The notes: generated by a model not told the origin, from the sequence alone. A stretch of 21,415 nucleotides of DNA from a virus (IMGVR_UViG_2778261463_000013:1-21415); one strand, 5' to 3'. Shown: positions 954 to 19,362, counted from the stretch's first letter. Numbers and translations: made by a program.

Positions 954-981
954 TGATCTACGTCACATTATATTGATAACC

Positions 982-4132: not shown

Positions 4133-4909
4133 TTAACCACGTTTCGCCTTCGCTTTCGCCTTCGGCGTCGTGGTCTGTTCTCTGGTTGTATCTTTCTGTG
4201 CCGCAGGCTCCTGTGCGGCAGCGGCTTCATCCTGTCCGGCCTTTTTCAGGGCCCGTGAAAGCGTGGCAATCTCACGTTTTACCCCCGCATTCGGGTTAAG
4301 GTGCATTGCCTCACGGAACAGCTTCAGACTCACCGCCATGCTGTCGGCATCGGTCAGGCCACGACGGGCAAAGGCGCATGCCTTGCACAGCTTGGCGCGG
4401 ACCTCATCGGGCATGTCCCGGTTCGCGACAATTTGCCAGAGGGTGTCCAGCGGTTCGATGTAGCCGGACAAATCGGCGTGTGCATCCGTTCCGGCCTGTG
4501 TCAGAACAGGGTTGCAGATTTCCTCGGTCAGTACCGTGGCTGCCGTACGCCCGAAGTTGTCAGGCATCGTGAGGTTGTGGCGAACCACATAATCCCCGAT
4601 GCGCAGTGCAAGCGCCAGGTCGCCACAGTCCACGGCCCACACCATGAGTGTGGCTATCACCTCATCCTGCTGTCCGCCGTCGGCTTCCAGCGTGCCGTCT
4701 ATCCAGCCTGCAAAACCCGGCAGCATTTCACGCTTGAGCGCGGCCTTTGCCGCTTTTGCCTGGACGCCCTTTATGCGTTGCTGTGCCAGGCGCAGACGGT
4801 GAAGGACCTGCTCATGAGCCGTGCGGGCCACGATATCCTCGTTTTCTGCTGCCGTTCCTGCCCGTAAAGCCATCACGTGCTGGAAATGAGCCTGTGCCGG
4901 TGTCAGCAT
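4133..4909 (-). CDS. M: Terminase small (endonuclease) subunit, P2 gpM-like
   Basis: 258-aa ORF with ...MPDEVRAKL... region resembling P2 M as recalled; directly downstream of N with a 2-bp gap. Confidence 0.8.
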   Translation of the reverse strand: MLTPAQAHFQHVMALRAGTAAENEDIVARTAHEQVLHRLRLAQQRIKGVQAKAAKAALKREMLPGFAGWIDGTLEADGGQQDEVIATLMVWAVDCGDLALALRIGDYVVRHNLTMPDNFGRTAATVLTEEICNPVLTQAGTDAHADLSGYIEPLDTLWQIVANRDMPDEVRAKLCKACAFARRGLTDADSMAVSLKLFREAMHLNPNAGVKREIATLSRALKKAGQDEAAAAQEPAAQKDTTREQTTTPKAKAKAKRG

Positions 4910-4911
4910 GG

Positions 4912-6051
4912 TTAATCCTCCTCTTCCCCTGCATCCTTGTCTTCAGCCTGCGCTGACAGTGCTTTTATGTCCTCCCGGTACCAGTCCGGCGCGTCATGGT
5001 CATATGTGGCAAAGCTGATATTCTCAATCAGTGCGCACTTACCATGGTCCTCAACCACATAGCAGTCGTTAACGGACTGATAGATGGCGATACGGTTGTA
5101 TTCGGGCTCATCCTTCATGAGACGACGCATGGACCCCTTCTGCCAGTAAACCGACAGGTTGCTGAATGAGGTGATGAGCATTGACTGAGCCGGGAAAAAT
5201 GGCGCAAGGTACACATCAAGGCCGCCAATGGTCCGCGTTGACACAATGAGCTGTCCGGCAAGCAGTTCGGCATTCGCATTCTGCATGCTGATACTGTTCA
5301 GGACCGGCAGGCGCAGGGAGTTAAAGAGGTTTCGCCCCATGATGACAACGAGGTCGTCTGCGTCCTTGTGCCATTCGTCAAGCAGGGATGAGCGTGCATC
5401 CTGGACCAGTGCATCGGGATTGGCGTATCTGCCTGTGTATGCCACCGAATTGTCCATATTGCGCGCAGTCAGCATCACGTCTTTCATGACGCGTTGCGGG
5501 GCCTGGTCCCTGATATCCTGCAGCCACCCCTTATTGACGTCCTCAAGTCGCGGGTGTTTTTTTATATCCGAGACTTCCGCATGGTGCGTACCGTTAAAAC
5601 CTGTCATGATGCGATCAAGTGCCACCTGTCTGGCAATCTGGCGACTCACACGCAGCTGGAAGTCAGGGTGTCCGGCCCACATGTCAAGCTGAGGGTAGGA
5701 GATGAAGGTGTCGTAGTTCACCTGCTCGCACTCATAGCGTCGCGCTTTCATGTCCACCACATTCAGCGGGTTACGACGATTTGTACCGTCATAACTGCTG
5801 TTCGTGCGCGCAACCGGCCCGGTGGTGTCCAGGAGTACCTTTTCACCTTTCTGCTCTGTCACACCAATGCTGTTGGCTTTCTGAAGAAAATCATGGCTTT
5901 CCTTTGATGCGTTTTCAAATCTCTGCTGCACTGCCGGCTGTACCGAAAAGCGGGAGGAGAGCGCAGATATTGTGATGTTATTCATCTCCGCCTGTTGTGC
6001 CTGGTAAGCAAAAAGCTCGGCCCGCGCGGCATCGCTCATGATCAGATTCAT
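4912..6051 (-). CDS. N: Major capsid protein, P2 gpN-like
   Basis: 379-aa ORF; motifs such as ...VLLDTTGPVA..., ...YECEQVNYD..., ...MTGFNG..., ...DYVVEDHG... resemble P2 N as recalled; AAGAGGTGA SD upstream of the ATG at 6051. Confidence 0.9.
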   Translation of the reverse strand: MNLIMSDAARAELFAYQAQQAEMNNITISALSSRFSVQPAVQQRFENASKESHDFLQKANSIGVTEQKGEKVLLDTTGPVARTNSSYDGTNRRNPLNVVDMKARRYECEQVNYDTFISYPQLDMWAGHPDFQLRVSRQIARQVALDRIMTGFNGTHHAEVSDIKKHPRLEDVNKGWLQDIRDQAPQRVMKDVMLTARNMDNSVAYTGRYANPDALVQDARSSLLDEWHKDADDLVVIMGRNLFNSLRLPVLNSISMQNANAELLAGQLIVSTRTIGGLDVYLAPFFPAQSMLITSFSNLSVYWQKGSMRRLMKDEPEYNRIAIYQSVNDCYVVEDHGKCALIENISFATYDHDAPDWYREDIKALSAQAEDKDAGEEED

Positions 6052-6079
6052 CGGTTATCACCTCTTGTGGTTATTTCTG

Positions 6080-6916
6080 TCAGTAGTCAGCCAGTTGTCT
6101 GGACTGCCCGCCGGTTGCCGTAAAACGACTTTCCTGATCAGCGTCCAGTCCGCGCAGTCTGTTTTTCAGCTCTGCCAGCTCAGTGGACAGGGTGGCGATT
6201 TTCTGTCTGTCTGCCTGATGGCGCGATTCCAGTGCACTGAAGCGGTCGAGAAGGTCGGCATGCGATGAGGCTATCCCCTCAACGGCGTCATGAATGCGGG
6301 AGAACCGGGTGTCGTCAGCCCTGCGTCCTCGCCCAATCATGTTCATCACGCGGTTAAGCCACTGCGCACCTTCCTCGCTGCGGCGCTCCGTCAGTTCGAT
6401 CACTTCAGCCTCAATGGCGTCAGAGAACATCGGTGCTTCCGTCTGCTGATTATTGAAGGTCATGACCGAACGGCGCTGCTGCAGGGCGAACTGAAGACGC
6501 TCCGTGCCGATGCTTGCCGGGGTGTCTGTCATGGCAAGGCCAATAAGATACGGGGTGCCCGTAGGGGTGAAATTTCGTGCCAGCTCAATACTGGAGTAAA
6601 TTTTCTTACCCCGGGAGACCAGATTTTTCATGCGGTCGGTGGGTTCGATTTCCGCATACAGCGCAGTACGACCGACCAGCGGACCTTCGGTGATTTCTTC
6701 TGTGCTCAGTGCCGTCACATCACCCATGGCGGAAAATTCACTGGACGGAACCGGTGAAAGCCAGTGCTCCACGTTCACGCGTGCGCCGTAAATCTCAGGG
6801 TTGAAGTTACTGGCCGCCGCGCGCAAATCTGCGGCACTGATTTCGCGACCGTCTGCGGTGGGACCGGAAACGGCCACGCGGAATGTTTTACGGGATGTTT
6901 TTTTCTGTTCAGGCAT
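6080..6916 (-). CDS. O: Capsid scaffolding protein, P2 gpO-like
   Basis: Internal ATG at 6916 (MPEQKKTSRKTFRVAVSGPTADGREISAADL...) with GAGGG SD; matches the P2 O N-terminus pattern (FRIGVEGDTCDGRVISAQDI...) as recalled; the track's upstream extension to 7057 is unlikely. Confidence 0.85.
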   Translation of the reverse strand: MPEQKKTSRKTFRVAVSGPTADGREISAADLRAAASNFNPEIYGARVNVEHWLSPVPSSEFSAMGDVTALSTEEITEGPLVGRTALYAEIEPTDRMKNLVSRGKKIYSSIELARNFTPTGTPYLIGLAMTDTPASIGTERLQFALQQRRSVMTFNNQQTEAPMFSDAIEAEVIELTERRSEEGAQWLNRVMNMIGRGRRADDTRFSRIHDAVEGIASSHADLLDRFSALESRHQADRQKIATLSTELAELKNRLRGLDADQESRFTATGGQSRQLADY

Positions 6917-6984
6917 TGTCGGGCCCTCGTGATGATCGTTTGTCTCATGATGGCAAAACGGGGCAGGGACAGACAAAGTGCGTT

Positions 6985-7008
6985 TGTTGTAAGCGAATGC
7001 CGACAACA
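6985..7008. promoter_or_regulatory. Ogr-type late-promoter dyad (TGTTGT-N12-ACAACA) in the O / P divergent intergenic region
   Basis: Perfect 6-bp inverted repeat arms with 12-bp spacer read in sequence; placed ~65-85 bp from the P start (7071) and the O start (6916). Confidence 0.5.
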
Positions 7009-7070
7009 CCGGGCATGGCAGGAGGCCTGTAAGGGGTGAGTAAACTGCCTGAATCACATGAGGGGGAGAA

Positions 7071-8822
7071 ATGATTCAGGATACATTTGTTCGCCAGCGG
7101 GCACGCCAGCTGTACTGGCAGGGTTACCCTGTTGCGGAAATTTCCCGCCTTATGGGTATCAACCAGAACACGATCCATTCGTGGAAAAAACGCGACCAGT
7201 GGGATGAGACGCCCCCGGTTCAGCGTGTCACGCAGTCCATGGATGCGCGACTCATTCAGCTCACGGAAAAACAGAATAAAACAGGCGGGGACTTTAAGGA
7301 AATTGATTTGCTGACCCGTCAGCTTAAAAAGCTGCATGACGGTCTGCCGGATGAGACGGCAACAGGAAAGAAAGGCCGGGCGAAAAAACGCAAAAATCAT
7401 TTCACGCCGGAACAGATCGCGGCGCTGCGGGAAAAAATTACCGACAGGCTGGCCGGACACCAGCGCAAATGGCTTGATGCTATCGGTGCCTGTGAGCGTG
7501 CCGGAATTACTGACAGGATGATCCTGAAATCCCGCCAGATTGGGGCGACCTGGTATTTTGCGCAGGAAGCGCTGCTGATGGCGCTGCGTAACGATGTGGC
7601 ACAACCTTACCAGCGTAACCAGATTTTTTTGTCTGCGTCTCGTCGTCAGGCGCTCCAGTTTAAAAGCATTATTCAGAAGGCTGCATCTGAAGTTGATGTG
7701 GAACTGAAAGGGGGCGATAAAGTCATCCTCTCCAACGGTGCAGAGCTGCATTTTCTCGGCACTTCTGCGGCCACCGCGCAAGCGTACACAGGGAATCTGT
7801 ATTTTGATGAGTTTTTCTGGACGGGGCGTTTCGCAGAGCTGCGCAAGGTGGCTGCTGCTATGGCAACGCTGGATGGTTTGCGGTGTACCTATTTTTCCAC
7901 GCCATCAAGTGAAACACATGAGGCGTATGCATACTGGAACGGCGATCACTGGAATGAAGGGCTTCGTACTCATAAACGTCAGCATTTTGATGTGAGCTGG
8001 AATGCGCTTCATAACGGCCTTATCTGTCCTGACTATATCTGGCGGCAAATTGTGACGCTGGAAGATGTGGTCAGTCAGGGATGGACGTTAACCAACATTG
8101 ACAAAATCCGGCGCAATAACACTGAAGACGAGTTCCGCAATCTCTACATGTGTGAATTTGCTCGCGAAGGGGAATCGGCATTTAACCTGAATATCCTGAT
8201 TGGCTGCGGTGTTGACGGATACGACGAGTGGCCGGACTGGAAGCCGTTTGCACCGCGTCCGATGGGGAACCGCCCTGTGTGGATTGGGTACGACGCCAAC
8301 GGCAGTAGCGGGAACGGTGACAGCGGGGCGGTTGTCGTGGTGGTGCCGCCAGCCGTACCGGGCGGGCGTTTTCGCACCGTGGAGACGCGGCGGGTGCAGG
8401 GGCTGGAGTTTGAGGCGCAGGCGAAGGTGATTGAAGAGTTCACCTTTCGCTATAACGTTGAGCATATCGGTATTGACGTAACCGGCGGTCACGGGGATGC
8501 GGTGTATCAGATTGTGAAGCGCTTTTTTCCGGCAGCCATTCCCTACACCTTCACCCTGTCATCAAAGCGCACGCTGGTTCTGAAGATGCTGCAGCTCATG
8601 CGCGCCGGGCGGTGGGAGTACGACCGCAGCGAGCGCGAACTGGTGAGCGCCTTTAACGCGGTACGCAAAACAAAAACGCAGGCCGGATTTATCACCTACG
8701 AAACAGATCGCGCAAGAGGCGTAAGCCATGGCGATCTTGCATGGGCCACCATGCTGGCCGTTATCAACGAACCTGTCGGCGGTGAACATGATGCCGCCCC
8801 CTTCAGTGTTACGGAGTTCTGA
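7071..8822 (+). CDS. P: Terminase large (ATPase) subunit, P2 gpP-like
   Basis: 583-aa ORF, GGGGGAG SD; stop overlaps the Q start (TGATG at 8820-8824); size and synteny as in P2 P-Q. Confidence 0.9.
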   Translation: MIQDTFVRQRARQLYWQGYPVAEISRLMGINQNTIHSWKKRDQWDETPPVQRVTQSMDARLIQLTEKQNKTGGDFKEIDLLTRQLKKLHDGLPDETATGKKGRAKKRKNHFTPEQIAALREKITDRLAGHQRKWLDAIGACERAGITDRMILKSRQIGATWYFAQEALLMALRNDVAQPYQRNQIFLSASRRQALQFKSIIQKAASEVDVELKGGDKVILSNGAELHFLGTSAATAQAYTGNLYFDEFFWTGRFAELRKVAAAMATLDGLRCTYFSTPSSETHEAYAYWNGDHWNEGLRTHKRQHFDVSWNALHNGLICPDYIWRQIVTLEDVVSQGWTLTNIDKIRRNNTEDEFRNLYMCEFAREGESAFNLNILIGCGVDGYDEWPDWKPFAPRPMGNRPVWIGYDANGSSGNGDSGAVVVVVPPAVPGGRFRTVETRRVQGLEFEAQAKVIEEFTFRYNVEHIGIDVTGGHGDAVYQIVKRFFPAAIPYTFTLSSKRTLVLKMLQLMRAGRWEYDRSERELVSAFNAVRKTKTQAGFITYETDRARGVSHGDLAWATMLAVINEPVGGEHDAAPFSVTEF

Positions 8823-9877
8823 TGAGCAGAAAAAATAAACAACGACGTACGAACGCCCGCGCAGCGCAGGGCAGCCTTGCGGATTCCCTGCGAAGCGACC
8901 CGACACTAAGTGCCTTCACGTTTGAAGGACCTTACCGGCTGTCAGGGGCCGACCTGCTGGACAGCATGTACTGCGCCGACAACGGGCGGTGGTTTGAAAC
9001 GCCCGTTGACTGGTACGGACTGGCACGGGCTGCCCGCCAGACGTCCTGGCACCAGTCGGCGCTCAGCTTCAAACGTAATGTGCTGCTGGGCTGCTATATT
9101 CCACATCCTCTGCTGTCCCGCCAGGAGTTCGCCGGGGTGGCGATGGACTGGTTTGTGTTCGGTAATGCCTGTCTTGAGCTGCGGCGCAACATGCTTGGCG
9201 AACCGCTGGCCCTGCGCCGGGCGCTGGCGAAATACATGCGACGTGGCAGCGATATGAAATCATGGTGGTATATACAGGAAGGACAGGAAGAGTACCGCTT
9301 TCGTGAGGGGACGATATGCCACCTGATGAATCCTGATATCAACCAGGAGATTTACGGGATGCCGGATTACCTGGGCGGCCTGCTGTCTGCCAGCCTGTCA
9401 CATTCCGCCGATATCTTCCGCAAGCTCTACTACGATAACGGCTCACACGCGGGCTGTATTGTCTACATCGGTGCGGCGCAGGTTGACCGTGAAAGCATGG
9501 AAAAACTGCGGGAAACACTGCAAAGCGCGCGTGGTGGCGGGGCGTTTAAAAATCTGCTCATCCACGCGGCGGGAGGTGGTAAGGATGGCGTACAGATTTT
9601 GCCGTTTCAGCAAATCACCGCAAAGGATGAGTTCATGAACGTCAAGGCTGCATCGCGTGATGATGTGCTGTCCGTGCACCGTGTACCGCCGCAGCTGATG
9701 GGGGCCATGCCGGGTGAGAAGGGGTCATTCGGGGATGTGGAGAAGGCAGCCCGTGTGTTTGCCATTAACGAACTGATGCCCGTCATGGAAGCAATGAAAC
9801 ACGTCAACGACTGGCTGGGCGAAGAGGTGATCCGTTTTAACCCTTACGCACTGTTAGACACCCAGCCCATATCCTGA
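8822..9877 (+). CDS. Q: Portal protein, P2 gpQ-like
   Basis: 351-aa ORF translationally coupled to P; size and synteny match P2 Q. Confidence 0.9.
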   Translation: MSRKNKQRRTNARAAQGSLADSLRSDPTLSAFTFEGPYRLSGADLLDSMYCADNGRWFETPVDWYGLARAARQTSWHQSALSFKRNVLLGCYIPHPLLSRQEFAGVAMDWFVFGNACLELRRNMLGEPLALRRALAKYMRRGSDMKSWWYIQEGQEEYRFREGTICHLMNPDINQEIYGMPDYLGGLLSASLSHSADIFRKLYYDNGSHAGCIVYIGAAQVDRESMEKLRETLQSARGGGAFKNLLIHAAGGGKDGVQILPFQQITAKDEFMNVKAASRDDVLSVHRVPPQLMGAMPGEKGSFGDVEKAARVFAINELMPVMEAMKHVNDWLGEEVIRFNPYALLDTQPIS

Positions 9878-9903
9878 CGCGCTTCGCTTGTCTGCTGCTT
9901 CGC

Positions 9904-9928
9904 CGGGGCATAAAAAATTTATGCCCCG
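9904..9928. other. Perfect palindrome CGGGGCATAAA-AAA-TTTATGCCCCG between convergent Q and the hotspot gene; no flanking U tract
   Basis: 11-bp arms, 3-nt centre, read directly; sits where a P2-family cos region would be expected (downstream of Q). Confidence 0.4.
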
Positions 9929-9943
9929 ACTCTCCAGCTCTGC

Positions 9944-10654
9944 TTAACGAAGTGCTGATGGCGCTCGCTTTTTCAGGTGATTAGCGATGTGCTTTTTCAT
10001 GTGCATAACAACATCGCCCCAGGCTTCTTCGCTGGGTTTATTGATAAATACGCGAACAGAAATATCGTCTTCCACCCGGACTCTCAGAGACACCCGTTCC
10101 GCATCTACTGAATATAATTCAAGTGCAATAACCACGCTTACCGGGTAGCTGCTGTCAGATGACTTAACCCAGGTTCGCACGGCCATGCGGAAAATATTGT
10201 CTGGTGCAGATGCGATATTGTGGACTGAAAGAGGACTAAAATCCGCCGCTGTCTTACATGGCAAGCCTGTCTCCACGTAGCGGTGCAGGTCGCCATCATC
10301 GTCTTCCCAGTACATGGATGGAAGCCCCAGCCATTCTTCATAGAAATCAATCAGCCTTGCCGCTTCATCCCGCAAAATTTGAGCTGCCTCAGCGCGTTTT
10401 TCTTCAGCTTCACGATTGATCTGGCATAAATCATTAAAGTGGCTCATGACATTATCCTCTTTTGAGTTGATGCCTGCCGCTATTCTGACTTTGCCCGGGT
10501 TCTCCTGCAAGCTGGTTATTCCTTCAGATAATTTCACAACATCTCCAACCTTGTAGCCATCATCGCCGGGCGGATGCTTACGCAACCCCGCAACTCTGAC
10601 GACATATTCTCGCTGCCTCAGTGCGATTTTGACGGCCTTATCTTTCACCCCCAT
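9944..10654 (-). CDS. Hypothetical protein (~236 aa from ATG 10654; alternative 167-aa product from internal ATG 10447), stand-alone unit in the Q-A accessory hotspot
   Basis: Long minus-strand ORF; ATG at 10654 has no clear SD, while internal ATG at 10447 is preceded by a strong AAGAGGA SD with 7-nt spacing; N-terminal ~70 aa have an AbrB/looped-hinge-like residue pattern (weak impression); no recognised homolog. Confidence 0.5.
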   Translation of the reverse strand: MGVKDKAVKIALRQREYVVRVAGLRKHPPGDDGYKVGDVVKLSEGITSLQENPGKVRIAAGINSKEDNVMSHFNDLCQINREAEEKRAEAAQILRDEAARLIDFYEEWLGLPSMYWEDDDGDLHRYVETGLPCKTAADFSPLSVHNIASAPDNIFRMAVRTWVKSSDSSYPVSVVIALELYSVDAERVSLRVRVEDDISVRVFINKPSEEAWGDVVMHMKKHIANHLKKRAPSALR

Positions 10655-10707
10655 CAAATCAAGCTTTTACGTCTTTTTTACGCTCAGCGTGAGAAATACA
10701 GCCATTC

Positions 10708-10725
10708 TGTTGTGTCGCTGCAACA
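10708..10725. promoter_or_regulatory. Dyad TGTTG-N8-CAACA (satisfies TGT-N12-ACA) resembling the late-promoter element at 2980-3003 but with a shorter spacer
   Basis: Shares TGTTGT..TCGCTG..CAACATC with the D/FI' dyad; function and orientation not established. Confidence 0.3.
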
Positions 10726-10872
10726 TCGTTCAGGGAATGCTATTTACCCCCTGAAACGCGGGCTGTTCCCCCGTCACCTGCGCGCAGAAAAAGGCCTTTT
10801 TTCGTGCACGCACGGATCCCCGACGGATCCAGACGCCACACGGGCCGGAAGGGCAAAAAGTCGTTCAAAAAA

Positions 10873-10902
10873 ATTGTGCAAATTTGTGCACTATTGTGCA
10901 TT
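10873..10902. repeat. Three direct repeats of (A/T)TTGTGCA at exact 10-bp phasing
   Basis: aTTGTGCAaa tTTGTGCAct aTTGTGCAtt read directly; helical phasing suggests an operator or protein-binding array. Confidence 0.45.
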
Positions 10903-10907
10903 GAAAT

Positions 10908-10935
10908 AAACGCCCTGGAGGAGGGCGTTTTGCTC
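10908..10935. terminator. Bidirectional intrinsic terminator after the A-linked operon
   Basis: 9-bp GC-rich stem AAACGCCCT/AGGGCGTTT with GGAGG loop, T-rich on both flanks; immediately downstream of the stop at 10938-10940. Confidence 0.6.
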
Positions 10936-10937
10936 AT

Positions 10938-11339
10938 CTATTTATAGCCTTGCCCCTTACTGGCCAGCGCCCTGATGGCAGGGCGTGCCAACACCATATT
11001 TTGGCAATGATGAATTGCCCGGCAAAATTCATCTCTACCCATTGGATGCTCAACTGGCAATGTAAAATACAGGTTCCATGCATCGCCTAAAAGTTGGGCT
11101 ATCTTTTGTTCTTCAGATGTCAGCAAGCGGTACTCCCCATCCTTGATGTAGTCACTTGTGCCATCGACCTGCTGTTCTGCAATGTGGAAAGCACCTATTG
11201 GTTTTGCTTCCAGCGATGCCAAAGCAATCCGTGCCAGTTTTTCCGCTTCTTCGGCTGGCAGTACAACGTTGCTACCAGGTCCGTATGTTTCGCGCCACTG
11301 CCTGATTGTCAGTAGTCGCTCTTTGGTTATAGTGGTCAT
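10938..11339 (-). CDS. Hypothetical protein (133 aa), last gene of the A-linked coupled string
   Basis: ATG overlaps the upstream stop (ATGA at 11336-11339); followed by a terminator. Confidence 0.55.
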   Translation of the reverse strand: MTTITKERLLTIRQWRETYGPGSNVVLPAEEAEKLARIALASLEAKPIGAFHIAEQQVDGTSDYIKDGEYRLLTSEEQKIAQLLGDAWNLYFTLPVEHPMGRDEFCRAIHHCQNMVLARPAIRALASKGQGYK

Positions 11340-11545
11340 TTGTTAATCCTCAAAACTTTATGCCCGGGCGCAAAAGCACGAGTTTTGTCTTTGCTTATTC
11401 GCCAGCCATCCTTACGCGCCTCTTTTGCACAGCCAGTCCATGACGTACCGATATATTCACCGAAGTCTGGCGTTTGATATTTACCATTTGTACACTGGCG
11501 ACAATCACAATAGAGATGCATGGTGTAACTTGCGGCAATAGCCAT
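11336..11545 (-). CDS. Hypothetical small Cys-rich (zinc-ribbon-like) protein, 69 aa
   Basis: AAGGAG SD 6-7 nt upstream of the ATG at 11545; YCDCRQC...GC Cys pattern. Confidence 0.55.
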   Translation of the reverse strand: MAIAASYTMHLYCDCRQCTNGKYQTPDFGEYIGTSWTGCAKEARKDGWRISKDKTRAFAPGHKVLRINK

Positions 11546-11546
11546 A

Positions 11547-11861
11547 TCAGTCTCCTTTGATGCCAGTGTTTACAACCTGACAAGCCTCTTTGAGCACCCA
11601 GTCAACAGCGTCTTGCCATGCTCCGGTTTCGACTGGCGGATTCTCACGCTTTACCAGTTCATAGAAACGTACTGCTCTAACCAGTCCATCTGACGGTTTT
11701 GCCTGTAGTGCAGCCTGAGCTATGCGGTATACCTGGAGCATACAGGCGTCGTTGATATCCATTCCGAATGGAATATCTGATGACTGAGATTCCACATCTT
11801 CCAGCCTGGCAATTTCTTTACGTAAGAAGCCTTTCAGTTCCTGCTTCTGTTTCCTGTTCAT
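11547..11861 (-). CDS. Hypothetical protein (104 aa)
   Basis: ATG at 11861 preceded by GAAGGA SD; the track start at 11876 is TTG; 1-nt gap to the next gene. Confidence 0.5.
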   Translation of the reverse strand: MNRKQKQELKGFLRKEIARLEDVESQSSDIPFGMDINDACMLQVYRIAQAALQAKPSDGLVRAVRFYELVKRENPPVETGAWQDAVDWVLKEACQVVNTGIKGD

Positions 11862-11872
11862 ATATTTTTCCT

Positions 11873-12067
11873 TCAAAGTTCGGTTCGCTGACAGGGTTTC
11901 TCTTTACGGCAGACAATGACGCTTCCTTTGCTCGAGTCGGTGATTGTTACCGTGCCGTCATCACACTGGACAATGACAACGGTGTTGCTCTTTTTCGCTA
12001 CGCAGTTCGGCGTGGCTGATTGTGCGAATGGCGCGAAAAACAGCAGAAAAAGTAATATTCTGCTCAC
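11873..12067 (-). CDS. Hypothetical small secreted protein (64 aa): predicted Sec signal peptide plus ~43-aa mature part with 4 Cys
   Basis: GTG at 12067 preceded by GGGAGGA SD (8-nt spacing) and overlapping the upstream stop (GTGA); N-terminus SRILLFLLFFAPFAQSA is signal-peptide-like; the track's ATG at 12244 would overlap the upstream gene out of frame. Confidence 0.4.
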   Translation of the reverse strand: MSRILLFLLFFAPFAQSATPNCVAKKSNTVVIVQCDDGTVTITDSSKGSVIVCRKEKPCQRTEL

Positions 12068-12495
12068 TGTTGTTTCCTCCCGTTCTGTGCTGGTCTGGCG
12101 AATGAATTGCGTTGTGGTGAAAAGACCATTCGCGCCAGCGCGGCCTTGTGATTGACTGTGTTCAGTGTTCTGGCCAGTCCGCCGTTGTGCCTGCGTGTCC
12201 GCTCTTCGTGATATCTCTGCATGATTTTCCCGGCAGGCGTGCACGGCTCCGGTTCCTCCGGCGAACGGCGCGGACGAATGACGACAGTCCAGCTATGGCT
12301 CTCGCTGCCCGGCCGCCTGTTGAGTATGTCGGCGATGGTGGTCTCCGTGGTGCGATCGGGGCTGACTATCGTGATTTCCAGCTCGTCGCCCGGTTGTGGC
12401 CTTGTGGCAGGCCTGAACAGTGTCAGCACCGGCATACGCTGGCGCATGATGGCCTCAAACTGTGGGCGCTGCATGGTGCAGCAAAATCGCGTCAT
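12064..12495 (-). CDS. Hypothetical protein (143 aa), translationally coupled to A
   Basis: ATG overlaps the A stop codon (ATGA at 12492-12495); Pro/Arg-rich; no recognised homolog. Confidence 0.45.
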   Translation of the reverse strand: MTRFCCTMQRPQFEAIMRQRMPVLTLFRPATRPQPGDELEITIVSPDRTTETTIADILNRRPGSESHSWTVVIRPRRSPEEPEPCTPAGKIMQRYHEERTRRHNGGLARTLNTVNHKAALARMVFSPQRNSFARPAQNGRKQQ

Positions 12496-15002
12496 GCTCC
12501 CGCCTCCACTGGCTGCTCTGTGATGATGTGACGGGCTGACTCATCCCAGTACGCTGTTCCCCCGTTATCCAGACGCACACGGGCACCGTTACGCACGGAG
12601 ATGATGGCCGCGTCAGGCAACTGCACACCCAGCGCATCAAGTTCGCGGGCGATTTGCGTGTCCGTCGCGGTATCCGCAGGCACGACAATCCCCACCCTTA
12701 CAGGGGTGTCAGATGCCGGTGTGGTGTCGTTTTGTCCGGTTTTTGCGCCCGACGGCTGATTTTTAATCTGATTACGCAGTTTTCTCCGATCGCCCCTGCT
12801 TAACGTATTCAGCCAGCTTTCCAGGTTCTCTTCGGGAAGCGTCAGTCGTCCGGGGTCCTGCCTGTTTTCTGGTCCGTGATTGTCTGTTTTTTCATCCCGG
12901 GGACAGTTATTGCCACGAGTCCAAGGGGCGACGGGGTCGCCCTGAAGGTCAAAACCCTCGCCCGTGCGGTTGTCTGGTGTTGTTTCTTTTTTAACCAGTT
13001 TCCACTCGTCCGGATGGGTGCATATGGTGTACCGCTCTCCGAGCGACGGGGCGCAGATTCCGTAGATACGTTGAGGGAATTCACCGTAGTCGTTGGCTTC
13101 GTCTGCGGTTTCGTATGCGGTGCGGACCAGATACTGGTTGCGCGGAATGAGCACACCACCCTGTTTCATGATGTAGGTGGCAAAACATCCCACATCTGCG
13201 GCAGCCATAATGGCGTCAATATCGTCATGATCGAGGTGCTTCGGTGATGCCGGGTTGCGCTCCATCTGGCTTGCAAGGCGGCGGAGTTCACGCCATACCT
13301 GGCGGGGCGGAATGCCGAAAAACTGGAACTGACGGATGCGGTGAAGGCTTGCCCAGGCAATGGCGTTCTCCACGGTTTCCGCCATGGTTTTCCCGGATTC
13401 CTCATCAACGTAAGGTTTTCCGGTTTTCGGATCATTGTTGTGGAAAGCGCTGGCGTCCAGGTTCTTACCGATATAGGTTGCGATATAGCTTGCCGGTGTG
13501 CCTTTTTCCGGGTCTATCTTCTCGCATTTAAAGCGCGGTGAAATATCGTCCCCCAGTTCGTGGCGATCTGATTTAATTGCTGCTTCGCGCATAATTTCGA
13601 TGATGCGCTCTGCGTTCTCCGGGGAAGTGAATACCAGCATATGCCAGTGTGGCGTGCCGTCATGGTGTGGCTCAGCGGTTCGCACGCCGTACCAGCCCAG
13701 CCCCTCTTTTTTTATTTTTTTTCTTACGGCTGCGAAGAAGTCGTAAACCAGATAATCACTGGCATCTCGTACTGTGGCACCGTTGTATTTCGGGTTCAGG
13801 CTGCCGTTCTCGTTCACGCTGTGAAAGCGGGAAGGGGTGGTTACTGTGATGAAGAATGCGACGTCAGCCCGTAATTCGGCCACCATCTCCATCCCTCTGA
13901 CGCAGACCATCATTTCATTGCGGCGGTTGCGTGGATTACCCAGGCCAGCCCAGTACACGTCCTCCAGACTCAGGCGCTCGCCGTCTTCGTTTTCAATATC
14001 CCAGCTTTTGAGAAAGTCACGGGTGCGCTGGCGCTTCTCGCGGAACTCCAGTAGTGACTCATGGCTGATATAGGGGGATTGTTTACGTGACACTCTGCCG
14101 GCGGCGCGCAGTAACTCCTCCCGCCAGAGATCGGCGACGTGGCGTAACTGGTTGTTCCACCAGGTCGCGCAGGTGATGCGCAGTACCGCACCCGGAACCC
14201 GTTCAGGGTCCGGCGGTGTGCGTCGGTTGTGCCTGATTTCGAGTTCCGGCCAGTATGGCGGGACCACGCCCAGAATTAAGGCTGTGCGTGCCACCTTCTG
14301 GTAGGCCAGCAGCCAGATAACCGGGCTGTCATTATCCTTGCCTGTCCGTTCAAGAACTTCATCACATATGCGTTCAAATTCTGCGGCGAATGCCTGGGCT
14401 GTCAGTGTGGCGATGCGCTGGATTTCGTCACGGGTGAGTTGCGGCAGTGTGAGCAGTTCTTCAAGGCGATGGCGCACGACGGTGGTTTTGAATGCCGGCG
14501 TTGCAAAGCGGTCGTTAACCCTTTCAATACGTTTCAGGCGCGCACGCAGTCCACGGCGAACGAAATTATCGGCCACGTATGCGCTGTTGTTTTTTACACC
14601 TTCACTGCGGGCACTTTGCTGTTTCCGGTTCAGTCGTGCCAGATCACGGATCAACACACTGGCAAGAAACGAGGGCAGGGTGCGAAGTTCGGCTATCGCC
14701 TCCGATACCGCCGTTGGCGGATTTTCGCGTCTGTGTCGTGCCAGCTTATCCAGCCTTATCTGCCGCTCTTCGTCCCGGTGAAGGTGTGAATTAATTTGCT
14801 TACCTTTGTCCGTGGTTGTCAGGAAGGCCACGGTTTCTTCATCCAGCCGGGCCTCAGTGCGAATGTCTTCGGTGAGGTAGTCACGGATTGCCCGTTGTAA
14901 TGCGGTTGGCTTCTGCGGTAATGCTCTGCCGAATGTCTCAGGATCAATAACCGGCAGCGGGGCGTTCCACGGGTACGCCAGGTGCGTGTGGTGATGGCTC
15001 AT
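12492..15002 (-). CDS. A: Replication initiation endonuclease (rolling-circle HUH family), P2 gpA-like
   Basis: 836-aa ORF; HUH motif region ...HHDGTPHWHMLVF...; GGGGAG SD 8 nt upstream of the ATG at 15002. Confidence 0.9.
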   Translation of the reverse strand: MSHHHTHLAYPWNAPLPVIDPETFGRALPQKPTALQRAIRDYLTEDIRTEARLDEETVAFLTTTDKGKQINSHLHRDEERQIRLDKLARHRRENPPTAVSEAIAELRTLPSFLASVLIRDLARLNRKQQSARSEGVKNNSAYVADNFVRRGLRARLKRIERVNDRFATPAFKTTVVRHRLEELLTLPQLTRDEIQRIATLTAQAFAAEFERICDEVLERTGKDNDSPVIWLLAYQKVARTALILGVVPPYWPELEIRHNRRTPPDPERVPGAVLRITCATWWNNQLRHVADLWREELLRAAGRVSRKQSPYISHESLLEFREKRQRTRDFLKSWDIENEDGERLSLEDVYWAGLGNPRNRRNEMMVCVRGMEMVAELRADVAFFITVTTPSRFHSVNENGSLNPKYNGATVRDASDYLVYDFFAAVRKKIKKEGLGWYGVRTAEPHHDGTPHWHMLVFTSPENAERIIEIMREAAIKSDRHELGDDISPRFKCEKIDPEKGTPASYIATYIGKNLDASAFHNNDPKTGKPYVDEESGKTMAETVENAIAWASLHRIRQFQFFGIPPRQVWRELRRLASQMERNPASPKHLDHDDIDAIMAAADVGCFATYIMKQGGVLIPRNQYLVRTAYETADEANDYGEFPQRIYGICAPSLGERYTICTHPDEWKLVKKETTPDNRTGEGFDLQGDPVAPWTRGNNCPRDEKTDNHGPENRQDPGRLTLPEENLESWLNTLSRGDRRKLRNQIKNQPSGAKTGQNDTTPASDTPVRVGIVVPADTATDTQIARELDALGVQLPDAAIISVRNGARVRLDNGGTAYWDESARHIITEQPVEAGA

Positions 15003-15007
15003 TCCGC

Positions 15008-15421
15008 TTACTCCCCTGCTGTTGCCTTCTCAAATGCAGCCCGGTACAGCACAAGAAGGCGCTGGTATTCAGCGATAAAGTCTTCTGCTGTTTTAATCCC
15101 TTTCACGACCACGCTGTGGGTGGTCATTTCCAGAACGAGCACCATTTCTGACGATGACCAGCTGATAACGCTGCTGTCGCACCCGTTGATGTGGAACAGG
15201 CCCAGCACCATGCTGTGGTTCTGGTCTCTGACATCCACGCGGTAACGGTCATCAACGGTGAAGGAAAAATTCCCGTATGTGGTGGCGCTGCTGGCGGCCT
15301 GTTTACAGGCGCGGCGGTAATAGTCATGCAGGTCATTGAGACGGGAAGCGAGGCGTGGATCCACCGCCCACATCCAGTTAAAAAAATCCTGAATATCTGA
15401 AAGTCCCTTAACGCTCTTCAT
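15008..15421 (-). CDS. Hypothetical early-region protein (137 aa) immediately upstream of A
   Basis: GGAGG SD 6 nt upstream of the ATG at 15421; position equivalent to P2 orf80-83. Confidence 0.6.
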   Translation of the reverse strand: MKSVKGLSDIQDFFNWMWAVDPRLASRLNDLHDYYRRACKQAASSATTYGNFSFTVDDRYRVDVRDQNHSMVLGLFHINGCDSSVISWSSSEMVLVLEMTTHSVVVKGIKTAEDFIAEYQRLLVLYRAAFEKATAGE

Positions 15422-15489
15422 GAGAACCTCCGGAAACGGACGTGCGGAAGCCTCCCGCGTACGGGGGCGGGATGGCTCCGGGATGTTGA

Positions 15490-15717
15490 TTAGTGGTGGT
15501 AGTGCTGGTTAATGAGGTCCTGCAGCTTGCGCAGGTCATCCGCCAGGTAGCTGAATACAGCGGCGGAATACATGTTTGACAGTGCGTGGCTGCGCTCATG
15601 CAGCATATTGATGTGCATGATATGCGCGACGCGGAATGCGCGGGAAAGTCTGCGGTTGATTTCAGTCTGGATGTGACGACGCGCAGCGTATGCGCGCTGT
15701 TGTTTGCGGTTTGCCAT
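15490..15717 (-). CDS. Hypothetical small basic protein (75 aa)
   Basis: AGAGG SD about 10 nt upstream of the ATG at 15717; overlapping 207-aa track ORF in another frame judged spurious. Confidence 0.55.
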   Translation of the reverse strand: MANRKQQRAYAARRHIQTEINRRLSRAFRVAHIMHINMLHERSHALSNMYSAAVFSYLADDLRKLQDLINQHYHH

Positions 15718-15724
15718 GGTGTTT

Positions 15725-15960
15725 GGCCTCTTCGTTTGTGAGTTTTTGGATACTCACCATCCAGAGGTTGCAATTCTGGGTGGCGAGACGTACAGGGTTG
15801 CAACCACCGGCAAACGAAGAAACCGGCCCGACCGAAGTCGGCCCCGTACGCCCCACCATAATTCTGGTGCGAAAAAGACGTGGCGATACGGTACGCACAA
15901 AAAAACCGCTGGCGCGGTTGTGCGCTTCGTTTGTCAGCGGGGGTTGCAATCCCGGCACCC
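15725..15960. promoter_or_regulatory. Repeat-rich non-coding region: three GGTTGCAA(Y) sites, one a perfect 10-bp palindrome GGTTGCAACC, plus three copies of CTTCGTTTG
   Basis: GGTTGCAA at 15766, 15796 and 15942; CTTCGTTTG at 15730 and 15925 (direct) and 15811-15819 (inverted); no convincing ORF. Confidence 0.4.
15899..15925 (-). terminator. Possible minus-strand intrinsic terminator downstream of the multi-HTH gene
   Basis: On the minus strand, stem AACCGC/GCGGTT with 4-nt loop followed by T7; stem is short so strength is uncertain. Confidence 0.35.
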
Positions 15961-16040
15961 GTTTTATGAGGTGCAGCGGAAATGTAACCTGACTGATTGC
16001 GGCATGGCAAGCGGTTTTTTTGTGTGTGCATAGTGGTTAC

Positions 16041-16595
16041 TCAGTCCGGTAGCAGTTCGCAAAGCACGGTGTCAGCGGCGGTATATCGTGCGTAAAGCCG
16101 GGCGAGGACCCATCTTTTAAGGGATATCCCGGTCGTGTCCCGGATGTACTTTCTGATTTCGCTGAATGTCATCCCCTGTTCATCGCGCAGTTCAGTTACC
16201 AACTCCACCAGGTGATCGCTGTATCTGGCTCTGTGGTGGAGTTCCCCGTATTTCCTGAACCGGTACCCTCTTTTTCTCAGGTTCAGTCCCACCGTGGATG
16301 TCGAGCGCCCCAGTTCATTCGCGAGTTCCCGGATGGTTTTTGTGTGGCGATTCCTGATGAGCGTGTTGAGTTCTTTTGTATTCAGGGGGGGGTGTTTGGT
16401 GTGGATAACCCCCTGAGAGAGCAAAAGACGGATGCGGCTTCGTATTGCTGGCCCGGTTCTCTGAAAGTGTTTTGTCAGTTCTGGTACGGTGTGGGAGGGG
16501 TATAAACCGACCAGTAGAGCATCTTCCTGTTGTGTCCAGGCTCTGACATGCTTCGGTGGTACACCTGATACACCCATAGGTTTAAGTGCGGGCAT
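16041..16595 (-). CDS. Predicted DNA-binding protein with three HTH-like segments (184 aa)
   Basis: ATG at 16595 with GGAGA SD; segments ...TVPELTKHFQRTGPAIRSRIR..., ...TIRELANELGRSTSTVGLNLRKRG..., ...TFSEIRKYIRDTTGISLKRWV... fit HTH patterns, reminiscent of paired HTH domains of transposase N-termini or GcrA/Myb-like regulators. Confidence 0.55.
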   Translation of the reverse strand: MPALKPMGVSGVPPKHVRAWTQQEDALLVGLYPSHTVPELTKHFQRTGPAIRSRIRLLLSQGVIHTKHPPLNTKELNTLIRNRHTKTIRELANELGRSTSTVGLNLRKRGYRFRKYGELHHRARYSDHLVELVTELRDEQGMTFSEIRKYIRDTTGISLKRWVLARLYARYTAADTVLCELLPD

Positions 16596-16829
16596 AGTTG
16601 TTCTCCGTTGTTCTGTTTTGTGTCGGGGTAATGGTCCGGTTTTTTCGCCTTCAACCGGAAAAGAAGGGCGTGTTAGCATTGATGAATCCGCCGTTCAGTG
16701 GATCTGGCGGACACTTTGTTCAACACGCCCGGGGGTAAAGATGTCTGGCTGCAAAAATTCCACGAGCCAGGTTACCCTGCACTCTGCGCTGATTAGGGGC
16801 AGAGCGATGACGATGAGGGATAAAACACC

Positions 16830-17312
16830 ATGCAAAACAACCAACGTAAAAAATCGAGAGAACGGGATGAGGTCATGTTCCGTCTCTGGTACAGCTACTG
16901 GCTGGAGCGCATCGCGGCGGTGTTCAATCGTCGCCTTGATGCGATCATCAACATTTTGATCCTTGCGGCGGGTGCGTTCATCGTAGCCGGCTGGCATTTC
17001 GGCTGGGTGCTGGGGGCAGTGGTGGTGGTTCTCGGAGCCTGTAATTTCATATGTCGTTTCGGGCAACGTGCGCAGGCGGCGAGTGAGCATGCCCATCGCT
17101 ACAATGAGTTGATTACCAAAAGCGCCCTCCTCAGTACGGAAGCTCTGCTGGCACGCCTTCCAGAGCTTGAGATGCATGACTCTCCTGTCCTGGAATGCAT
17201 GGAAAATGTGGCGTACAACAAAGCCTGTATGTCTCTGAATATCAGTCATCGTGAATCTCTCTCTTTCGCTGAAAAGATGATGGCTGCCATTACGATCGGT
17301 TTGTCCCGATAA
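16830..17312 (+). CDS. Hypothetical membrane protein (160 aa), lone plus-strand gene inside the minus-strand early region
   Basis: GAGGGA SD upstream of the ATG at 16830; hydrophobic stretch IINILILAAGAFIVAGWHFGWVLGAVVVVLGA; overlapping minus-strand 211-aa ORF judged spurious. Confidence 0.5.
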   Translation: MQNNQRKKSRERDEVMFRLWYSYWLERIAAVFNRRLDAIINILILAAGAFIVAGWHFGWVLGAVVVVLGACNFICRFGQRAQAASEHAHRYNELITKSALLSTEALLARLPELEMHDSPVLECMENVAYNKACMSLNISHRESLSFAEKMMAAITIGLSR

Positions 17313-17351
17313 GTGCCCTGCGTGTGTCATCTGACGCTCGCCATGTTCCCG

Positions 17352-17564
17352 TCAGTCGTTCGGGTTTATGACGTAATCCACGACGTTTTCCACGCGGCGG
17401 CGTAATTCCCTGTGTATCTGGCCTGGTGTTGCTGGTTCGCCCGGTTGCCCCAGGCCTGCCACAAAATCGTCGATTTCACTCATAAGCAGGTTGCGCATTA
17501 CGGCGATATGGTGACGCGCCTCTTTGCCTGGTCTGCGTGCGTTGGTATCGTGTTTGCTGCTCAT
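17352..17564 (-). CDS. Hypothetical protein (70 aa)
   Basis: ATG at 17564 overlaps the upstream stop (ATGA); GAGG SD upstream. Confidence 0.45.
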   Translation of the reverse strand: MSSKHDTNARRPGKEARHHIAVMRNLLMSEIDDFVAGLGQPGEPATPGQIHRELRRRVENVVDYVINPND

Positions 17565-17770
17565 GTTCTTACCTCGCTTATTATCTCGAGTTCGCGCCAT
17601 GACTCTGTCAGGACGGTTATCTGTGACCCGTCCGTCAGGTGGACGTAAATCAGTTCGTCACCTGCCGGGCATCGGGTGGTGGTGGCTATGACACTGCTTT
17701 CCACTTCGTATTCCATCCCGGATGTATCGGTAAAAAGCGTTTTATTGCGTCTTCTCAGAATTGCAGTCAT
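17561..17770 (-). CDS. Hypothetical protein (69 aa)
   Basis: GAGGG SD 8 nt upstream of the ATG at 17770. Confidence 0.5.
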   Translation of the reverse strand: MTAILRRRNKTLFTDTSGMEYEVESSVIATTTRCPAGDELIYVHLTDGSQITVLTESWRELEIISEVRT

Positions 17771-17780
17771 GGTGTGGCCC

Positions 17781-18074
17781 TCAGTGCATTCGTGATGACG
17801 TGCCAGCCTCAGTGCTCTGAAGCTGACGTCTGAGGTTTTTCAGCTCCTGAGCCAGCCTGATGTTTTCTTCCCGGAACTCAGAAAGCGCCTGCACGGCAAG
17901 GGCGATGGCTATCGCTTCTGTCTGGTGCATCATGGCTAATAATATTTCTTCCGGATGTTCCATTAATTCACGGCTTAGTTTGTTTTTTTTCTTAATTAAT
18001 TTGTTTGTGCCTTCGATTATTTTGTTGACCTGTTCACTGTTATCAATGATTCGGTTTTTTTTATTATTAAGCAT
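17781..18074 (-). CDS. Hypothetical protein (97 aa), Lys/Asn-rich N-terminus, coiled-coil-like, in a markedly AT-rich segment
   Basis: Strong AAGGAGA SD 8 nt upstream of the ATG at 18074; local AT-richness at 17940-18070. Confidence 0.55.
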   Translation of the reverse strand: MLNNKKNRIIDNSEQVNKIIEGTNKLIKKKNKLSRELMEHPEEILLAMMHQTEAIAIALAVQALSEFREENIRLAQELKNLRRQLQSTEAGTSSRMH

Positions 18075-18154
18075 TCCTGATTTCTCCTTTTTGAGCGGGT
18101 CAACCCCTCCGCGTGAGCGGATGTTTCTGGTTGTTTCTGGTGTTAAACGCCTGT

Positions 18155-18280
18155 TTATTTACGGCGCTTATCGCCAGTAAATAACGATTCAATGGTGTTA
18201 ATGCTGTTAATTACCCGCATAATCCCCACAGCGTAAATAATGGCAAGGATAAGAATTAACCATGACATAAATACGCTCAT
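18155..18280 (-). CDS. Small hydrophobic peptide (41 aa), single predicted TM helix with basic C-terminal tail, translationally coupled to the upstream gene
   Basis: ATG at 18278-18280 overlaps the stop of the 80-aa gene (ATGA); translation MSVFMSWLILILAIIYAVGIMRVINSINTIESLFTGDKRRK; below the ORF-track size cut-off. Confidence 0.35.
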   Translation of the reverse strand: MSVFMSWLILILAIIYAVGIMRVINSINTIESLFTGDKRRK

Positions 18281-18519
18281 GCTTCCTCCTGAATTACAAA
18301 GGGGGTTATTACGTTTCCTTCAGACAGGTCTTTATTAATGGCCTGTAATTCCGTCAGAGCTTCATTATCTCCGGAACCAAAGGCGCAACAGGTCAGGCCC
18401 TTGATTGCTGTAGTCAGTGCTGCAAGTGAAACAGCGTCACCGTTAGTGCCACGGCTTGTAAGTCCGTAATGGTAATTCTGAAGCGCGTGGTTAATGAGTT
18501 CTTTATAGGCTCTTTTCAT
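18277..18519 (-). CDS. Hypothetical protein (80 aa)
   Basis: AGAGG SD 8 nt upstream of the ATG at 18519. Confidence 0.5.
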   Translation of the reverse strand: MKRAYKELINHALQNYHYGLTSRGTNGDAVSLAALTTAIKGLTCCAFGSGDNEALTELQAINKDLSEGNVITPFVIQEEA

Positions 18520-18557
18520 CTTGCTGCCTCTTCTGTCTTATTAAGACTCCTTTTGCC

Positions 18558-18896: not shown

Positions 18897-18920
18897 GTTA
18901 AAGACTCTGTACAGATTTAA

Positions 18921-19354: not shown

Positions 19355-19362
19355 TTTCGTGT

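Follow-up and report, generated by a model that had tools for sequence, protein, structure and literature searches.

A variable and probably composite interval between the portal and replication genes of a P88-like prophage of Escherichia coli

The DNA stretch IMGVR_UViG_2778261463_000013:1-21415 (21,415 nucleotides, here called the window) belongs to a prophage of the P88-like group of E. coli (genus Xuanwuvirus, family Peduoviridae, P2 family). Positions 9878–12491 (2614 bp) form the exact gap between the stop codon of portal gene Q and that of replication gene A, and this gap is a real and highly variable accessory region, the cos-proximal Q-A hotspot of the P2 family. Six open reading frames (ORFs), all intact and all on the minus strand as A is, occupy it. 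Those coupled to A are termed g1 to g5, while the sixth, g6, is a long ORF of which only the C-terminal part, g6C, appears to be a gene. On balance, and with confidence a little above even, we read the interval as a composite in which backbone DNA, a replication-linked gene (g1), early-operon cargo (g2–g5) and the self-contained g6C differ in history and in the expression to be expected of them. The comparisons show anatomy, conservation pattern, coupling, folds, selection and synteny, whereas the timing of expression and all biochemical functions are inferred. A preliminary description of the window had treated the six genes as one novel cargo block replacing tin and old of P2. That view gives way when the parts are compared, as g1 goes with the A allele, g3–g5 appear to be lambdoid and ~440 bp of the interval is backbone. 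The flank identities (Q and A) rest on Pfam, PHROG and RefSeq annotation.

The variability of the interval was assessed on 104 loci retrieved via the portal protein, whose Q-to-A intervals were compared, and a coverage profile of the window interval was computed over 88 related loci. Among the 74 loci with a portal protein at least 75% identical there are 32 architectures between conserved flanks, and interval length among the compared loci ranges from 1.3 to 5.5 kb, in agreement with the earlier description of a variable P2-family Q-A locus. The profile resolves the window interval into two backbone blocks (9878–9940 and 10524–10900), together ~440 bp, and only two variable stretches, namely 10901–12491, which is the classic A-side cargo site, and 9941–10523. 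The Q-A interval is in this respect two separate insertion sites flanking the probable cos, with different expected expression, a distinction that matters for catalogues scoring gpQ-gpA as one 'system'. The guanine-cytosine (GC) fraction is 0.556 in terminase gene P and Q, 0.562 in A and 0.60 in g1, and lower in g2–g5 (0.45–0.49) and in the module inserted at 9941–10523 (0.484).

In its flanking genes, its position near the probable cos, its extreme variability among similar prophages and its lower-GC cargo, the interval resembles the cos-proximal gpQ-gpA hotspot of P2 that holds old and tin (PMC9122126). It differs in that no defence gene can be recognised and in being split by the probable cos into two insertion sites. 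Moreover, the P2 old/tin locus lies on the opposite strand to A with a cos-proximal promoter of its own, whereas here the cargo lies on the A strand and is joined to the early operon. The A-side cargo of prophages with g6C homologues (loci L110–L113 and L124) holds toxin-antitoxin-like pairs and ParM/StbB partition genes. The pairs are TumE with an HVO_A0114-family protein, Gp49 with an opposite-strand helix-turn-helix protein, and HicA/HicB, which shows one slot with very different fillings.

The Q-proximal variable stretch contains the most distinctive component. The preliminary description placed here a stand-alone gene of ~236 amino acids (aa), and part of this stands: the long ORF (9944–10654/10657, minus strand) exists, RefSeq annotates it at ~236 aa, and it is separate from the A string. 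The real gene, however, appears to be the 167-aa g6C, and the '236-aa' ORF an accidental in-frame read-through. The PHROG 5091 profile (1–163 of 164) covers only residues 70–236 of the long ORF. Most full-length homologues are 167 aa long and start with MSHF or MGHF, while the other calls, of 169–234 aa, are non-conserved upstream extensions. The 167-aa frame starts at the ATG at 10447 with its own ribosome-binding site (RBS). By contrast, residues 2–44 of the long ORF match, by tblastn, an ORF located 75 nt after Q, directly after the terminator hairpin tQ, in ~60 P88-like relatives. At the junction VKLSD-stop has become VKLSEGITS..., so that the insertion removed the stop of this 42-codon ORF and the frame runs on for 25 codons into the next gene. 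The 42-codon ORF has a ratio of nonsynonymous to synonymous substitution rates (dN/dS) of 0.66, a start codon that is not conserved and no PHROG match, and is probably not a gene at all. A toxin-antitoxin pair made of this small ORF and g6C was considered and rejected, as nearly all relatives have the small ORF but no g6C, and its evolution is close to neutral. Plus-strand and alternative ORFs of the interval, including the 68-aa N-terminal extension, gave no PHROG match.

The insertion itself is a module of 583 bp. Among 80 portal-sampled relatives it is present in two, both window-identical contigs, and absent from the remaining 78 viral contigs; the module matches in 6 of the 88 coverage-profile loci come from loci retrieved through g6C homologues. 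Upstream of g6C, predicted expression signals keep the same register in four loci that encode g6C proteins of 54–75% identity, although the spacer sequence and flanks diverge. The shared elements are a -35 box TTGC(A/G/T)(G/C), a 17-nt spacer, a -10 box CA(G/C/A)AAT and a purine-rich RBS, which in the window lies 8 nt before the ATG. At the other end, the g6C stop falls 15 nt before the tQ hairpin. This has the anatomy of a self-contained 'moron'-type insertion between cos and the portal gene, with its predicted promoter inside the insertion. The space between cosL and Q is a described pick-up site for foreign genes in P2-like phages, and g6C resembles the genes found there (ctx of phiCTX, ORF1–4 of Ralstonia phage RSY1) in slot, self-containment and intact neighbours (PMC5694545). 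It differs from them in belonging to another protein family and in having diverged together with the portal gene across several lineages of enterobacteria.

The history of g6C suggests a functional gene. In P88-like prophages of E. coli, Edwardsiella tarda and Salmonella, the distance between the portal stop and the g6C homologue (54–87% identical) is always 55–66 nt. Another P2-like prophage carries a 38% identical homologue in its A-to-portal interval, towards the portal end and with a single 125-aa gene before the portal gene, and a 24% identical homologue lies between the antiterminator Q and holin genes of a lambdoid prophage, a slot that we take to be the stx position of Shiga toxin (Stx) phages. 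As dN/dS is 0.15 where it could be measured (against L115) and dN tracks that of the adjacent portal gene, g6C is probably a functional protein long resident here rather than a recent pick-up. The gene is rare, being present in 32 of 5426 complete E. coli genomes, and a tblastn search of g6C against 50,697 phage genome records gave no match. In NZ_CP158426.1 and NZ_LT599825.1 the insertion sequence (IS) ISEc12 (IS21 family, istA/istB) splits g6C with the loss of ~56 bp (window equivalent ~10345–10351; locus L128, 2831–5133). Because ISEc12 interrupts it in these two genomes, g6C is dispensable for prophage maintenance, and the two strains are natural knock-outs.

An exhaustive profile search yielded ~50 representatives of the g6C family, nearly all of 155–185 aa, and for the majority the match spans most of the protein; most of the remote homologues lie on contigs of 1–3 kb that carry no gene context. 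Neither a Pfam scan of 35 family members, which found no family, nor a profile search with the wide g6C alignment, which added no informative members, extended this set. The AlphaFold2 model of g6C (predicted local distance difference test 85, predicted template modelling score 0.80) combines an N-terminal helix of 40 residues and a C-terminal helix with an antiparallel sheet to give an alpha/beta-sheet/alpha sandwich. It has no match in a viral structure library, and other fold matches are weak and generic, with no close match. The invariant positions across the 35 members are hydrophobic or structural. The wider family conserves no polar residue, and g6C may be a cytoplasmic, non-enzymatic protein binder.

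Of the interval genes, g6C alone would be transcribed from the repressed prophage, via its own predicted sigma-70-like promoter, and no other gene here is a good candidate for a function expressed in lysogens. Its product might interfere with a rival phage, in the way that P2 Tin does by binding T4 gp32, or modulate a host protein. One reading alternative to our composite model takes g6C by itself as a single-gene, lysogen-expressed exclusion or defence factor that binds an incoming phage or satellite protein, with the rest of the interval being early-operon cargo. The insertion-module anatomy with its conserved predicted promoter, the occurrence in accessory slots of two phage types, purifying selection and the binder-like fold lacking conserved catalytic residues are all consistent with such a role, and in P2 this region already encodes one non-enzymatic exclusion protein, Tin. 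Tin and g6C are both single cytoplasmic prophage proteins of the cos-proximal region, an analogy only, as they differ in size and in the side of cos on which they lie. Set against this, comparison of g6C with Tin shows no similarity (BLASTP best E=0.75; hhalign probability 0.2), no PADLOC model resembles it, its fold matches are weak and generic, it is rare and IS-disrupted in two genomes, and a role in host physiology, virulence or anti-defence would be just as possible. We regard this reading as possible but doubtful. A defence role of g6C as such is plausible given the published success rates of unknown hotspot cargo, although well short of even. Broader still is the proposal that the g6C family (PHROG 5091 and ~160–180-aa relatives) represents a new single-protein lysogen factor that excludes phages or satellites by binding one protein, with a fold lacking characterised relatives and kept in accessory slots of P2/P88-like and lambdoid phages; this we consider unlikely. 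In practical terms, the target is narrowed from 2.6 kb of 'six unknown genes' to one 583-bp module, and a g6C phenotype, should there be one, would define a new protein family with a new fold; if there is none, the locus is ordinary mosaic cargo.

Backbone DNA lies on both sides of the g6C module. The block at 9878–9940 occurs in ~85 of the 88 related loci and is 98–100% identical among the matches listed (100% in most). P2 annotates a terminator at the position equivalent to tQ, and here the hairpin would also close the convergent g6C. These 63 bp after the portal stop are far more conserved than the adjacent coding DNA (~85 loci, with portal proteins only ~82% identical), and such extreme conservation suggests strong constraint or frequent recombination at this place. 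The second block, 10524–10900, is probably the packaging region containing cos. This reading follows from two observations: the linear P88_4B11 record starts and ends, with no redundancy, at the equivalent of 10856/10857, and in P2 nothing but the tQ terminator occupies the 168 bp from the end of Q to cos. At the distal border of this block, three TTGTGCA repeats are kept in P88_4B11 and also in L110, L113 and L115, diverged relatives with different cargo, and a GTGAAC variant is found in Edwardsiella. By their distribution the repeats belong to the backbone and not to a private control region of the neighbouring gene; they could be binding sites for terminase or a host factor. The repeat-bearing control region once assigned to the ~236-aa gene is lost with this result, since 10658–10937 is backbone in ~80 of the 88 relatives, whether the gene is present or not.

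On the far side of the cargo site, g1 is predicted to form an ASCH/PUA-like beta-barrel whose best structural match is 3iuw, the same structure that P2 Orf91 matches by sequence (E=5e-11). Orf91 is a DUF3850/ASCH protein whose gene overlaps the end of A. The two are alike in position, in translational coupling to A and in ASCH fold, and unlike in that g1 has an extra basic helix of ~40 residues with a disordered tail and no sequence similarity to Orf91. Pfam PF12961 and PF04266 gave no match at E<=1 for g1, its N-terminal 75 residues or the L111 homologue, and PDB sequence searches with g1, g3, g4 and g5 gave no match. The g1 protein appears to be the fold and positional counterpart of P2 Orf91, and common descent is not claimed. 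Its distribution is that of a replication gene. Among the fetched loci, g1 homologues are limited to the position directly behind an A gene of the same clade (72–73% identical, L110–L112), where the rest of the cargo is different, and g1 is missing from all loci in which A is at most 50% identical; the family is confined to E. coli. With its replication-type GC fraction, g1 belongs to the replication module and not to the hotspot cargo, and it probably acts in nucleic-acid binding during early lytic development. The interval is not invariant, which favours the preliminary description, whereas the likeness of g1 to P2 Orf91 counts against it for that protein.

Five small genes coupled to A had been proposed, and g1–g5 are indeed one translation-coupled string behind A with overlaps or gaps of -4 to 11 nt: an ATGA overlap between A and g1, a GTGA overlap between g1 and g2, gaps of 11 nt (g2/g3) and 1 nt (g3/g4), and an ATGA overlap between g4 and g5. 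By gene content and composition, g2–g5 look like lower-GC mosaic cargo appended to the early operon and ending at the terminator at 10908–10930, with g3–g5 as a lambdoid exo-xis-type module. By eye, g2 has an N-terminal signal-peptide-like segment (MSRILLFLLFFAPFAQS/A) and four Cys in its predicted mature part. The g3 protein is 93% identical to a P88 gene product, and its C-module is 58% identical to the product of the gene upstream of the g4 homologue in lambdoid phage 606R7. There the order is a g3-like gene, the g4 homologue and 'Ea22', which is that of g3-g4-g5. DNA around g4 (11199–11563) is 93–96% identical to Stx-converting phages, the P1-like phage RCS47 and others, and in Stx2 phage 86 it lies downstream of bet/exo.

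Both g3 and g5 appear to consist of two modules, with halves swapped at a conserved RIALAxLEAKP recombination joint. The two share only the motif RIA(Q/L)A(A/S)L(Q/E)AKP. In other P88-like phages a 135-aa protein joins the g3 N-part to the g5 C-part at this motif (L038) and another joins a different N-part to the g3 C-part (L069), so that the g5 C-module is found either alone or fused to the g3 N-module. In the window the joint lies at 11700–11725 in g3 and 11200–11232 in g5, and it is also seen in loci L038, L069 and L100. This is the two-part mosaic design published for Ea22 proteins (PMC10834534): a shared N-part, a swappable C-terminal domain and an exo-xis neighbourhood are found among the g3/g5 relatives (L038, L069; Stx2 phage 86, 606R7). 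The window genes resemble lambdoid exo-xis/Ea22-type proteins (PMC7093339, PMC10834534) in the g3-g4-g5 order, which is seen beside 'Ea22' genes and downstream of exo/bet, in two-part design and in early-operon location (g3, g5). They differ from lambdoid Ea22 in that g3 and g5 are much shorter, have no long coiled coil and no Ead_Ea22 match, and lie in a P2-type early operon. Public gene models of g5 cover only its first 45 codons (RefSeq, as a partial pseudogene) or, in older annotations, only its last 62. Both look wrong, as the ORF is intact over 133 codons and has the ATGA overlap with g4. Two public models are corrected in consequence, from 236 aa to 167 aa (g6C) and from a partial pseudogene to an intact 133-aa ORF (g5).

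The early operon of P2 (A and Orf91) is repressed by C in lysogens. Because g1–g5 show no promoter of their own and are coupled to A, they would be made only when the early operon fires, in infection or derepression. This timing, drawn from the P2 analogy, would fit a prophage defence role poorly, and we infer that g2–g5 are early host-takeover, developmental-switch or counter-defence factors rather than prophage immunity genes. Genes of the exo-xis region are expressed early and modulate lysogenisation and induction (PMC3824215, PMC7093339).

Several points weigh against the composite reading. For g1, the model was built on 14 closely related sequences, and comparison with P2 Orf91 gave no BLASTP match and an hhalign probability of 0.2. 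For the backbone, sequence homology of the putative cos block to P2 cos was dropped, since the alignment score fell within the range of shuffled controls. The likeness of g3–g5 to exo-xis is by synteny with neighbours only: neither g3 nor g5 matches Pfam Ead_Ea22 (PF13935/IPR025153), g5 and lambda Ea22 gave no BLASTP alignment, and the link of g5 to the 606R7 'Ea22' is the short RIALASLEA motif only. On timing, a generic consensus scan found no minus-strand promoter match in g1–g5, yet internal promoters may escape such a scan; the g6C promoter itself is a weak match, scoring 8/12 against consensus and below the 9/12 threshold of that scan, and early-operon silence in lysogens is presumed in P88-like phages by carrying it over from P2. 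The ISEc12-split copies of g6C in two genomes and the loss from the window of 13.6 kb with tail and lysis genes count on the same side, and some interval genes may be inert passengers. Finally, most of the untested unknown loci of the sister P4 hotspot proved defensive (6 of 8 active; PMC13586616), which raises the prior for defence beyond that suggested by the anatomy.

The interval had earlier been singled out as the likeliest place in the window for novel defence or superinfection exclusion. Its location and variability hold, and the Q-A interval has been described as a reservoir of anti-phage systems (PMC9122126, PMC13586616). No defence domain is present in any of the proteins, however, and nothing identifies an anti-phage system in the interval. 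Pfam and NCBIfam scans found no nuclease, nucleoside triphosphatase, TIR, SIR2, reverse-transcriptase or toxin-like domain in the interval proteins, and the sole PADLOC-DB 2.0 match at E<=1, of g3 to PDC-M28C (E=0.016, 12 bits), is meaningless; six other queries gave none. A second alternative sees in the entire interval a new locus for anti-phage defence or superinfection exclusion, in the tin/old position and with one or more new systems expressed from the prophage. This would suit a documented P2 defence hotspot (PMC9122126, PMC13586616) of hypervariable, lower-GC cargo in which g2 looks exported, like some exclusion proteins. It would also suit published tests, where about one third of cloned hotspot systems, as well as the P4 loci above, were active. 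We nevertheless judge it improbable: there is no usable PADLOC match or defence-type domain, g1–g5 follow A in one coupled string that shows no separate promoter, where old and tin have their own on the opposite strand, and the interval dissolves into an Orf91-like g1, genes g3–g5 of the kind found in lambdoid early operons, and ~440 bp of backbone.

The locus has been catalogued but is uncharacterised, and the hotspot concept and the cosL-Q insertion site are already known. Rousset et al. 2022 extracted every E. coli gpQ-gpA locus, and their Table S5 has the NZ_CP033635 locus, which is identical to the window interval, as 'hypothetical x 6' (PMC9122126). The entry includes WP_000196517 (g1), WP_000086827 (g2), WP_001080487 (g3) and WP_000951718 (g4), and several other genomes are listed alike (PMC9122126). 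Those four accessions are absent from the table of tested systems in the same paper (PMC9122126), and a full-text literature search for the protein accessions and phrog_5091 found no paper. New anti-phage systems have been obtained from P2-family hotspots, which makes uncharacterised cargo of this kind worth triage.

The arrangement is not confined to the window. Interval and flanks are 99.9–100% identical to a chromosomal prophage in 20 of the 5426 complete E. coli genomes, from various hosts and countries, and two more genomes match at 100% over 82% of the interval, bringing the full arrangement to 22 of 5426. In both copies inspected (NZ_CP033635 and LH50-c) the prophage is integrated beside dmsA. 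This stability bears on a third alternative, that most of the cargo consists of non-functional recombination leftovers, which only linkage preserves while the prophage decays. Such decay would account for the partial-pseudogene flag on g5 in RefSeq, for g6 as an accidental fusion ORF, for the 13.6 kb of essential genes missing from the window prophage and for the abundance of mosaic joints. All ORFs are intact, though, with RBSs and coupled starts, and the near-identity across 20 genomes extends to prophages (NZ_CP033635 and LH50-c) that retain the genes missing here. Furthermore, g6C has a dN/dS of 0.15 and has co-diverged with the portal gene, and g3 and g4 are conserved across unrelated phage types. 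Extensive decay is accordingly the least probable of these readings, and very unlikely in our view.

As the preliminary description had it, six uncharacterised small genes lie between Q and A. The six ORFs are confirmed, with 0 matches for their proteins in the Pfam, NCBIfam or PADLOC libraries (the meaningless g3 match apart), and public copies of the proteins are all named 'hypothetical'. Every one matches PHROG families, none with a credible assigned function, and the label 'DNA ligase' of phrog_13916, matched by the g5 C-terminus, is dubious. An Rfam scan of the interval found no RNA family. The features of the interval and its flanks are collected in Table 1.

Table 1. Features of the Q-A interval and its flanks, in window coordinates (strand '.', not stranded)
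Feature	Position	Strand	Details
Terminase gene P	7071–8822	+	ORF
Portal gene Q, left anchor	8822–9877	+	351-aa ORF; phage portal protein in identical RefSeq copy
Backbone block downstream of Q with tQ hairpin	9878–9940	.	Arms 9904–9914 and 9918–9928, perfect 11 bp; -28.9 kcal/mol, z = -6.5
Inserted module, 583 bp (predicted promoter, RBS, g6C)	9941–10523	-	9 bp in P88_4B11 at that place (alignment)
g6C, PHROG 5091 family, 167 aa, predicted cytoplasmic, mildly acidic (isoelectric point, pI, 5.4)	9944–10447	-	Profile and homologue starts
Predicted g6C expression signals	10456–10510	-	-35 TTGCAG 10510–10505; 17-nt spacer; -10 CAGAAT 10487–10482; RBS AGAGGA 10461–10456
Probable remnant of 42-codon backbone ORF (false N-terminus of '236-aa' ORF)	10524–10654	-	In-frame fusion
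Conserved block, probable cos/packaging region	10524–10900	.	85–92% identity in 78–82 of 88 related loci
Three TTGTGCA repeats, 10-nt spacing	10874–10900	.	Repeat search; at border of backbone and variable cargo
Hairpin terminator closing the A-g1-g5 transcription unit (predicted)	10908–10930	-	Perfect 9-bp arms; RNA fold -15.2 kcal/mol, z = -3.5; then UUUAUUU
g5, 133 aa, two modules	10938–11339	-	N-module end RIALASLEAKP; C-module PHROG 13916; PHROG split at ~residue 70
g4, 69 aa, basic, four Cys	11336–11545	-	PHROG 926, E=7e-37
g3, 104 aa, two modules	11547–11861	-	N-module end RIAQAALQAKP; C-module PHROG 26213; also PHROG 660
g2, 64 aa, GTG start	11873–12067	-	GGAGG 7 nt before the GTG that overlaps the g1 stop; same 195-nt coding sequence in RefSeq; PHROG 20764, E=4e-10
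g1, 143 aa, pI 11.3, predicted N-terminal ASCH/PUA-like barrel and long C-terminal helix	12064–12495	-	ATGA overlap with A at 12492–12495
Replication gene A, right anchor	12492–15002	-	PF05840, E=2e-104; PHROG 91 'nicking at origin of replication'

Outside the interval, the window prophage lacks ~13.6 kb that in the LH50-c copy, with a full gene set, separates the terminase small-subunit gene M from the tail sheath gene. Among the lost genes are those for head completion, lysis, baseplate, tail fibre, tape measure and tube. The sheath ORF (2930–4258, plus strand) is ~80 nt short and abuts the end of M at a junction at 4131–4136 (1–4131 versus 4132–21415) that was found in 0 of the 5426 complete E. 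coli genomes. Either the element in the window is a defective derivative formed by deletion, or the junction was made in assembly. Just beyond the ogr end of the prophage, a 46-codon ORF (353–493, minus strand) corresponds to a gene annotated as a Hok/Gef-family toxin. Upstream of A (15008–17330, minus strand) are ORFs of 137, 207, 212 and 211 aa with no significant Pfam match, one having a weak winged-helix match. In the early region, 18832–19146 has no match in the NZ_CP033635 copy, although its flanks match at 97–99.6%, and it may be a second small variable spot in the early genes.

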